DNA of 64,000 bases, taken from the NCBI RefSeq assembly GCF_030384885.1, contig NZ_CP128614.1. One strand, 5' to 3'. Below the pieces are notes generated by a model. That model was not told where the DNA came from and made no database searches. It was given only the letters and a program-made list of their open reading frames with translations. Below, piece after piece: positions 31,148 to 31,851 of this stretch (position 1 is the stretch's first letter; each line of letters starts with the position of its first letter). The translations under genes were made by a program, and so were the position numbers. The stretch is from Escherichia coli. GTDB taxonomy: Bacteria > Pseudomonadota > Gammaproteobacteria > Enterobacterales > Enterobacteriaceae.

Positions 31148-31223
31148 GTGCTGATTGTCCTTGCGCCATTACAATTGTTCAAATCTTCAACATGGATTTT
31201 TTGTTAGGTGTTCGGTAGGGTGA

Positions 31224-31234
31224 AAAGTAACTTT
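31224..31234. repeat. Palindrome AAAGTAACTTT, copy e (upstream of the trhR-like operon)
   Basis: Read directly (GTGAAAAGTAACTTTTAGT), ~80 bp upstream of the 31147 start. Confidence 0.6.
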
Positions 31235-31493
31235 TAGTATTTTCTTAAGGCTTGAATAAGCCTTAAATCTATCCCTTCAACCACACCGCTTACTTGTAAC
31301 ACTTTTTAACCAAACTGACCAGAATTTTATCAAAATTTCTTCGCATGCTAACGAAATGTGAAGCGATTAAAAAAAAACCTAAATCCAGCCCCTCCCAACG
31401 TTGGATTAGAATAACGACGTCTTTCACTGACCGTCATAAACTGACATTTTTACTTTTCATCAACCTCATGCTTACATAGGATCACTAAACAAA

Positions 31494-31640
31494 GAAAAGT
31501 GACCCTATGAATACCTCACATAGGGTCACTTATGTTTGAAAAGTGACCCTATGTAATGTCGTCATAGGGTCACTTTTTATAAAAGTGTCACTATGGACAA
31601 AGTTCCATAGGGTCATTTTTTTTGGAAAAGTGGCACTAGA
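31494..31640 (+). repeat. oriT: oriT-like cluster of inverted repeats built from AAAAGTGACCCTATG
   Basis: Three successive IR pairs (AAAAGTGACCCTATG…CATAGGGTCACTT; again; then AAAAGTGTCACTATGG…CCATAGGGTCA) plus AAAAGTGGCACTAG, in the divergent region between the trhR-like and relaxase operons. Confidence 0.45.
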
Positions 31641-31708
31641 TATATGTATAACTTTAATAGAGCAATGCACATTATCAAAAGCAATAATCCACAATGGTCA
31701 TTCCCTCA

Positions 31709-31719
31709 AAAGTAACTTT
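31709..31719. repeat. Palindrome AAAGTAACTTT, copy f (upstream of the relaxase operon)
   Basis: Read directly, embedded in the larger inverted repeat CCCTCAAAAGTAACTTTAGAGGG. Confidence 0.6.
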
Positions 31720-31851
31720 AGAGGGTAGCGATGGAAGTGAGGCTAAACTCGCTGTTACTGTTTCTGAAGGCCCCTCCCGAATGGGGGAAACAGCGAGTGC
31801 ATTACATCTGTTCAATTCCCTCATCAAAGAGCATTCAAAAATCTTCTGTTC

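Follow-up and report, generated by a model that had tools for sequence, protein, structure and literature searches.

An array of eight alternating half-sites between trhR and mobI as the predicted transfer origin of an IncHI2 plasmid

A 64,000-nucleotide stretch of Escherichia coli DNA (contig NZ_CP128614.1 of NCBI RefSeq assembly GCF_030384885.1, hereafter the window) was identified as part of an IncHI2 plasmid, and the intergenic region between its divergently transcribed trhR and mobI genes is read here as the origin of transfer (oriT) of that plasmid, with a probability of roughly three in four. Its working part would be positions 31475-31653, where eight alternating half-sites are followed by a conserved tail. 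This reading, which was reached by comparing sequences, is supported by selection on the half-sites, capture of the array by chromosomal islands, homology to the corresponding IncHI1 region and the position of the region within the transfer genes. The mobI gene corresponds to traH of the IncHI nomenclature, which encodes a MobI-like factor (TraH of R27). The location of oriT next to traH has been known since 2002, when Lawley and co-workers reportedly found that an intergenic fragment between the mating-pair formation (Mpf) and DNA transfer and replication (Dtr) genes of Tra1 was mobilised by R27. What is added here is the anatomy and spacing of the eight sites, the half-site variants of the different lineages, a 136-bp core, a candidate nick region and the copies on islands.

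The array consists of 15-bp half-sites with the consensus AAAAGTGACCCTATG, which are predicted to be bound by MobI/TraH, and the last of them overlaps the conserved tail:

31475..31640, no strand assigned: array of eight alternating half-sites, the proposed MobI/TraH binding array
31475-31489, minus strand: half-site 1
31495-31509, plus strand: half-site 2
31519-31533, minus strand: half-site 3
31539-31553, plus strand: half-site 4
31563-31577, minus strand: half-site 5
31581-31595, plus strand: half-site 6
31606-31620, minus strand: half-site 7
31626-31640, plus strand: half-site 8, atypical
31637..31653, plus strand: conserved 17-nt tail TAGATATATGTATAACT, directly 3' of and overlapping half-site 8, the candidate nic region

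The centres of successive half-sites are 20, 24, 20, 24, 18, 25 and 20 bp apart, and because the mean spacing is 22 bp, the half-sites lie roughly on one face of the helix. The array can also be read as four direct units of about 44 bp, each of them a tail-to-tail dyad with an A/T-rich middle and 18-20 bp from one arm centre to the other. Half-sites 6 and 8 form a conserved subtype, GTG(G/T)CACTA. Five copies of the 9-mer GACCCTATG are packed into 110 bp, with none elsewhere in the 64 kb, and the array is single in the window, where its sole match is itself in reverse; a structure of this kind far exceeds what chance would produce. The same self-match accounted for distant BLAST matches that had appeared to fall at three places per record. 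The earlier note on this DNA had described three consecutive inverted repeats, and all three are real (31495-31509/31519-31533, 31539-31553/31563-31577 and 31581-31595/31606-31620); the first two have perfect arms of 13-15 bp and spacers of 9 nt, and the third is imperfect. That description was incomplete, however, as further half-sites lie at 31475-31489 on the minus strand and 31626-31640 on the plus strand. Within the intergenic region a GATC (Dam) site occurs once, at 31480-31483 inside half-site 1 (CATAGGATCAC); it is the sole departure of this half-site from the GGGTC consensus and is absent in IncHI1.

The footprint of selection was assessed against IncHI1-type sequences (pHCM1, a Citrobacter freundii plasmid and pLR-29-1_1), which show about 75% identity overall to this region of the window. 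Half-site positions were identical at 111 of 120 (92.5%), whereas the spacers inside the array matched at only 16-19 of 46 (35-41%), a contrast with a Fisher p value of about 1e-12; the flanks were 64-67% identical on the left and 50% on the right. Since the half-sites are conserved and the spacers have diverged, the half-sites are taken to be under selection, as is the tail, and the loops are not. Conservation beyond the half-sites was seen in a block to the left of the array (31288-31383) and in the first 13-17 nt beyond half-site 8. One natural variant was found among the sampled matches: the IncHI2 plasmid of ETEC1738 (L005, NZ_CP122769.1) carries a 90-bp deletion of exactly 31491-31580, which removes half-sites 2-5 and leaves two dyads.

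Further loci were gathered by way of increasingly distant MobI proteins, and their half-sites were compared with those of the window:

L015, Photorhabdus plasmid, MobI 86% identical: GACCC type, as in the window, six half-sites
L016, truncated contig, MobI 59% identical: AAAAGTGACTCTATG (GACTC), at least three half-sites
L014, 226-kb plasmid contig, MobI 54% identical: AAAAGT(A/G)ACACTATG ((A/G)ACAC), eight half-sites
L008, Klebsiella megaplasmid, MobI 40% identical: AAAAGTACTAATG (AC-TA), six half-sites

The GACCC half-site is common to the HI2, HI1 and Photorhabdus arrays. In L014 the spacing is 20-24-20-25-18-25, as in the window, and in L008 the tail-to-tail spacing is again 20, with one head-to-head distance widened to 36. 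Within each lineage the half-site variant is uniform among the copies, and the layout is unchanged. Such uniformity is a mark of concerted evolution, which would be expected of sites read by one lineage-specific protein. IncC-type mobI loci (R55, Edwardsiella and pAQU1-like) carry an unrelated repeat, AAATTCCAGATAGATAG or TTATCCAGATAGATAG, in both orientations. The principle of repeated sites therefore seems to be general, with the sequence and the regularity of the array specific to IncHI.

The dyads also fold well, with z scores of -8.9 and -8.3 for the two strands when compared with shuffled sequences, and the functional form could in principle be single-stranded. In this alternative the head-to-head pairs, 9 nt apart, would extrude as hairpins on the transferred strand, which the relaxase would recognise when it initiates or terminates transfer, or which would act as a single-strand priming or promoter signal in the recipient. 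Two perfect stems of 13-15 bp with 9-nt loops, arm changes that are always compensated between lineages, and the MOBH relaxase of the gonococcal genetic island (GGI), which requires a hairpin beside nic whose structure counts and whose sequence does not, are all in keeping with such hairpins. However, the third dyad is a poor hairpin, since sites 6 and 7 differ, and this imperfection is itself conserved in HI1, HI2, Photorhabdus and the islands described below; the sequence of the arms is conserved far beyond the needs of pairing; and the tail-to-tail distance of 18-20 is the most constant one in the array, even in L008 with its head-to-head distance of 36. Dyad symmetry would suit dimeric proteins equally well, so compensation is not diagnostic. 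A single-stranded function for the array is thus considered unlikely, and double-stranded binding sites within an oriT are preferred.

Copies of part of the array were found outside the transfer genes, and they define a shorter module:

31518..31653, plus strand: 136-bp module of half-sites 3-8 and the tail, shared with islands, the proposed minimal oriT

A scan with the core dyad of one genome per species returned one IncHI2 contig and a 6-kb metagenomic contig (L022, JAEWOH010000045.1), in which six half-sites and CACTAGATATATGTATAAC lie beside an AlpA-family gene (Pfam E=8e-7). This contig is labelled 'Bacillota bacterium' and has probably been mis-binned; in BLAST it otherwise matched Klebsiella and E. 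coli DNA and an IS3 end. Two E. coli chromosomes, those of EC2001 and LR-33, also carry the module. In EC2001 (copy at 9254-9390 of L023; island L024, NZ_CP133811.1 921104-941100), it is positioned at the right end of an island of about 20 kb at tRNA-Gly, next to an additional alpA gene; NZ_AP027523.1 also has the island. Genes for an integrase, AlpA, an Icd-like protein, a TOPRIM/DUF927 primase, SSB, an SLT-domain protein, Rap1a/Tai immunity and YafO are present on the island, which has neither a relaxase nor mobI. Neither trhR nor mobI nor the flanking palindromes (see below) were found with the island-type copies of EC2001, LR-33 and L022. Among 5,426 complete E. coli genomes, the module was present at 412 plasmid places and 8 chromosomal places, which indicates that the island form is rare. 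No description of islands with a copy of an IncHI-type origin was found in the searchable literature.

The alignment of the EC2001 and L022 copies with the window showed that homology between island and plasmid starts exactly at 31518 and stops at 31653. Within these limits 86 of 90 half-site positions and all 13 positions of the tail (31641-31653) were identical, compared to 10 of 32 in the spacers, and outside the module only 3 of 13 and 5 of 21 positions matched. The island copies thereby amount to what reads as a natural deletion analysis, in which three dyads and the tail were kept, and the left block and both palindromes were left behind. It is tentatively proposed, at somewhat short of even confidence, that the 136-bp module is a complete, portable IncHI origin; that the P4-like islands at tRNA-Gly (EC2001, LR-33 and the metagenomic contig) are hitchers that carry nothing but this oriT and travel on IncHI1/IncHI2 resistance plasmids; that the invariant tail contains the nick site; and that the half-site variants form a specificity code read by MobI/TraH. 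A different set of derivatives consists of IncHI1 Tra1 relics flanked by insertion sequences (IS), found in L026 (pTetA_020022, 91 kb), L025 (a 24.7-kb plasmid), L006 (IncFII/IncR) and L004 (99-kb IncHI1B). These relics retain the array and mobI, which is sometimes frameshifted, and lack the relaxase and mating-pair genes; it is possible that they are oriT-mobI cassettes that a co-resident IncHI plasmid can mobilise.

Consecutive inverted repeats also bring to mind a site for site-specific recombination (resolution) that mimics an origin, like the second IncA/C 'oriT'. That a site of this kind can pass as oriT in mobilisation tests was shown by Hegyi et al., and the three repeats look superficially like a res site. 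This explanation is regarded as highly improbable, because no plasmid lineage has a recombinase gene adjacent to the array, where the neighbours are trhR and mobI; because neither the distance between arms (9 nt, or 3-6 nt where the centre is A/T) nor the presence of eight sites resembles res, dif or lox; and because the integrase of the island is 19 kb away at the tRNA-Gly end.

The oriT reading is consistent with the position of the array among the transfer genes. The region 31148-31851 is 100% identical to hundreds of plasmids typed as IncHI2A from E. coli, Salmonella and Enterobacter, and 99% identical to R478. The genes and the region between them are as follows:

30347..31147, minus strand: trhR-like gene, 266 aa, first gene of the leftward R operon (trhR, trhY)
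31148..31905, no strand assigned: divergent intergenic region, 758 bp, predicted to contain oriT and the promoters of both operons
31906..32391, plus strand: mobI/traH, 161 aa, MobI-family mobilisation factor (Pfam PF19456, E=4.8e-22; 'MobI(A/C)' in the annotation of the Prokaryotic Genome Annotation Pipeline, PGAP)
32388..33125, plus strand: conserved open reading frame (ORF), 245 aa, between mobI and the relaxase gene, no family match
33129..36281, plus strand: traI, MOBH-family (HD-domain) relaxase (NCBIfam NF041494 MobH, E=5.7e-76)
36281..38365, plus strand: type IV coupling protein TraD/TraG (TIGR03743 SXT_TraD, E=2.9e-203)

A homologue of the gene at 30347..31147 is annotated as 'trhR' in CP060660. 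To its left on the minus strand lie a 170-aa gene in the position of trhY and then TraF-like, trhH and TraG-N mating-pair genes, and a DUF4400 protein is annotated downstream of the coupling protein gene. Synteny on the trhR side is kept across all IncHI-type lineages examined, as is the position of the 245-aa ORF. A search of NCBIfam and Pfam for a DNA-binding domain in TrhR, TrhY and the 245-aa ORF gave no match. The earlier note had placed the region between the divergent trhR and relaxase operons, and this position was borne out; its right edge, however, belongs at 31905 and not at 31851, because the start of mobI is the ATG at 31906 in PGAP and all homologues, and the ORF at 31852 is an upstream GTG extension of the same frame.

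The oriT of MOBH1 systems is found just upstream of mobI (IncC, SXT, Rts1, MGIVchHai6 and R27), and secondary sources place the oriT of R27 directly beside traH. Several features of a MobI-dependent MOBH1 oriT are present in the window. The region is directly upstream of a MobI-family gene, from which the end of the array is 265 bp away; the MOBH relaxase, the TraD-type coupling protein and the DUF4400 protein are encoded downstream; and the repeat-bearing segment is AT-rich, the G+C content of the intergenic region being 38% (0.35-0.38) compared to 48% for the window. The oriT claim of the earlier note is therefore supported, as the region lies between trhR and the Pfam-confirmed mobI/traH, upstream of the MobH relaxase and the TraD-type coupling protein. 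In addition, the region is homologous to the IncHI1 trhR-traH intergenic region, and the repeats are conserved there and copied by otherwise unrelated islands.

Repeats of about 15 bp phased at about 22 bp in an AT-rich region could also be the iterons of a replication origin, or an incompatibility or partition determinant. This is barely credible here, because iterons are direct repeats and the orientation of the half-sites strictly alternates, because no rep or par gene is adjacent and no rep gene lies within 10 kb, and because array and mobI stay together in all the lineages examined.

The remainder of the intergenic region holds candidate promoters and other elements:

31288..31383, minus strand: conserved left block CTTACTTGTAACACTTTTTAACCAAACTGACCAGAATTTTATCAAAA ... 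TGCTAACGAAATGTGAAGCG, near-invariant between HI1 and HI2, absent from island copies
31351..31324, minus strand: candidate trhR promoter TTAGCA-16-TAAAAT, a promoter-like site within the left block
31880..31885, plus strand: TATAGT, conserved candidate -10 of the rightward H-operon promoter
31897-31901, plus strand: GGAGG, ribosome-binding site of mobI

In the alignment of IncHI2 and IncHI1, GGTATAGT.ATTTCACATCAGGAGG was invariant across all six sequences. No consensus -35 or sigma-70 promoter was found for the traH operon, and the missing -35 would fit a promoter that depends on an activator (TrhR/TrhY). Neither an IHF consensus nor an IncP-type nic (ATCCTG) was found in the region. A G+C-rich sequence, CCCCTCCC...GGGGG, in the interval from the right palindrome to the traH promoter is enclosed by a perfect inverted repeat of 10 bp (ACTCGCTGTT / AACAGCGAGT, 31747-31798), which is present in IncHI2 and not conserved in IncHI1.

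The array might instead be mainly a transcriptional operator for the divergent trhR and traH promoters, bound by TrhR/TrhY, HtdA or MobI, with the origin located elsewhere, for example in the left block. The array does lie between two divergently transcribed operons, phased arrays of dyads are typical of operators, and the left block is almost invariant between HI1 and HI2. In addition, the promoters of mobI in IncC overlap with oriT, which makes a double role plausible. The left block also corresponds roughly to the oriT reported by oriTfinder: the interval given for the IncHI2 plasmid pGS32-1 (PMC13055346) converts to about 31132-31383 of the window, which takes in the left block and leaves the repeat array outside. 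This interval is probably no more than the top BLAST stretch from a longer R27 entry, as the similarity between HI1 and HI2 breaks at about 31383, and that is the simplest account of it. In a related discrepancy of naming, the pSTM6-275 paper (PMC5923156) puts oriT in 'Tra2', which is inconsistent with R27 (Tra1). Against an operator, the array is about 125 bp from the candidate trhR promoter and about 240 bp from the conserved traH -10, and the islands copied the array and the tail with neither a promoter nor the left block. A mainly regulatory array is accordingly judged improbable, and the array is retained as the predicted oriT.

Two copies of a dispersed palindrome, AAAAGTNACTTTT (core AAAGTNACTTT), bracket the array, as the earlier note had observed:

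31223..31235, no strand assigned: left copy AAAAGTAACTTTT, exact, 76 bp upstream of the trhR start codon, probably a regulatory site outside the oriT core
31708..31720, no strand assigned: right copy AAAAGTAACTTTA, 12/13, about 185 bp upstream of mobI

The palindrome is strongly over-represented in the window, with 27 strand-matches compared to 0.38 expected. Eight copies are exact, and 14 have no more than one mismatch, compared to 0.15 expected. In total 17 sites were located in the 64 kb (16693, 18257, 19158, 21251, 28163, 30782, 31223, 31708, 35131, 36569, 38299, 43201, 48250, 48376, 58165, 60372 and 63103). About half of them are intragenic (trhR, trhH, traI, traD, an SLT gene and others), up to 30 kb away. 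In the searchable literature the repeat and palindrome sequences gave only irrelevant matches, older subscription papers being beyond reach.

The earlier note regarded the palindromes as part of the oriT architecture and suggested that palindrome and repeats are recognised by related proteins. A shared sequence does exist, the 9-mer AAAAGTNAC being common to palindrome and half-site; copies lie on both sides of the array in HI2, HI1 and L014 and after it in L008 (the left copy is conserved in IncHI1 and L014, the right copy in HI1, L014 and L008); and the L008 half-site, GAAAGTTACTAATG, is even nearer to half a palindrome. However, the palindrome is invariant where the half-site has changed (L014, 1805 and 2294; L008, 3245 and 3349), it is absent from the island copies, and about half of its own copies lie within genes. 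Furthermore, no copy was found in the trhF-trhY intergenic region, the expected place of the TrhRY-dependent F promoter. Neither suggestion was sustained, as nothing examined favours the link, and a joint role of palindrome and half-sites in the origin is rated as quite unlikely. It is concluded from these comparisons that AAAAGTNACTTTT is probably a separate, plasmid-wide regulatory or architectural motif that would be dispensable in cis for the origin.

The conserved tail is a candidate for the nick region. The motif TAGATA N0-2 TATGT occurs once in the 64 kb, compared to 0.07 expected. In Photorhabdus, L016, L014 and the islands it comes after the last half-site, and variant forms are present in IncHI1, where the tail differs from that of the window by one base, and in L008. 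A similar element, TAGATAGTTATGT, lies within the minimal oriT of R55 (IncC), a match that is possibly coincidental. By analogy with related systems, we hypothesise that the nick falls in or beside TAGATATATGTATAACT (31637-31653).

The mechanism proposed from these analogies is as follows. By analogy with IncC, SXT and MGIVchHai6, multimers of MobI/TraH would occupy the half-sites on double-stranded DNA and would recruit the TraI relaxase by way of its C-terminal domain; MobI is reported to self-associate, to bind the C-terminal domain of TraI and to set the specificity for oriT. TraI would then nick the plus strand in or beside TAGATATATGTATAACT, and the strand would be transferred 5'->3' towards mobI, which would enter the recipient first. 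In MGIVchHai6, which has a MobI-dependent oriT, transfer likewise proceeds into mobI. The same complex would probably also affect both divergent promoters. The confident AlphaFold2 model of MobI/TraH (predicted local distance difference test score, pLDDT, 87.5) has a helix, a beta-hairpin and a helix, with two helices of about 45 residues flanking a small beta-sheet in a prefoldin-like topology.

Several points weigh against the oriT reading or parts of it. Comparison of the MobI model with solved DNA-binding proteins gave no structural or sequence relative. The neighbouring genes all diverge in parallel, so the co-variation of protein and site is confounded and MobI is not singled out. The function of the island copies as origins is putative. 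Four other MOBH1 plasmids (Edwardsiella, pAQU1-like, Marinobacter and Rts1) lack TAGATA N0-2 TATGT upstream of mobI, which rules this sequence out as a universal MOBH1 nick motif. Despite attempts, the nic site is unmapped in any MOBH1 system, and no MobI footprint has been reported either. Lastly, in the GGI the substrate of TraI (MOBH2), the only MOBH relaxase studied biochemically, has its inverted repeat 3' of nic, which is the opposite of the arrangement proposed here.

IncHI2 plasmids are major carriers of mcr-1, mcr-9, extended-spectrum beta-lactamase (ESBL) and metal-resistance genes, and the exact position of their origin matters for predicting which DNA they mobilise. The comparison yields short candidates for the nick region and the MobI/TraH binding sites in the MOBH1 family, and it suggests that IncHI plasmids might move core-bearing islands and the IS-flanked oriT-mobI relics.

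Several known systems can be compared with the predicted origin. Classical origins have phased sites for accessory proteins beside nic (TraY/TraM in F, TrwA in R388), at which a nucleoprotein complex is assembled and which often autoregulate an adjacent promoter. Here, too, several phased sites lie beside a nic, in this case a candidate one; however, the classical accessory proteins are ribbon-helix-helix or related proteins, and the MobI model is like no known DNA-binding fold. With the oriT of the GGI, whose nic was mapped in vitro for the MOBH2 TraI, the region has in common an HD-domain MOBH relaxase and the inverted repeats, one of which beside nic is required in the GGI. It differs in that the GGI has a single repeat 3' of nic and no MobI, whereas the IncHI repeats would be 5' of the proposed nick under the inferred direction. 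In Rts1 (L020, 23080-23247), upstream of mobI by a ParM/StbA gene, at least eight copies of a CTCATTCAAC-like repeat with a period of 11 bp were observed in the segment to which experiments had assigned the Rts1 oriT; their layout is unlike the IncHI and IncC arrays, and they may be the partition site for the adjacent ParM/StbA gene.

The oriT-mobI modules of IncA/C (Hegyi et al. 2017) and SXT/R391, like the window, have an AT-rich origin directly upstream of a MobI-family gene, several sites of about 15 bp in both orientations, and dependence on a MOBH1 relaxase. In contrast, their repeat is unrelated (AAATTCCAGATAGATAG) and less regular in layout, their origin is 49 bp from mobI compared to 265 bp in the window, and their mobI lies apart from traI, whereas that of the window heads the relaxase operon; the MobI proteins are 16-23% identical, and the relaxases belong to MOBH12 as opposed to MOBH11 in the window. 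The mobilisable genomic islands (MGIs) that depend on SXT, and MGIVchHai6, which is mobilised by IncC, offer a parallel for the islands described here, which carry a trimmed origin of the helper type and no relaxase; MGIs that copy the SXT oriT also lack mobI. The helper in the present case would be an IncHI plasmid, however, and the island is P4-like and located at tRNA-Gly (int, AlpA, primase and SSB).

The nearest relative is the IncHI1 oriT of R27. The spacers and the right-hand 250 bp of R27-type IncHI1 plasmids have diverged from those of the window, but the locus is orthologous (trhR / traH-traI-traG, about 75% nucleotide identity), the relaxase belongs to the same MOBH11 clade, and the eight half-sites are retained with the same spacing.

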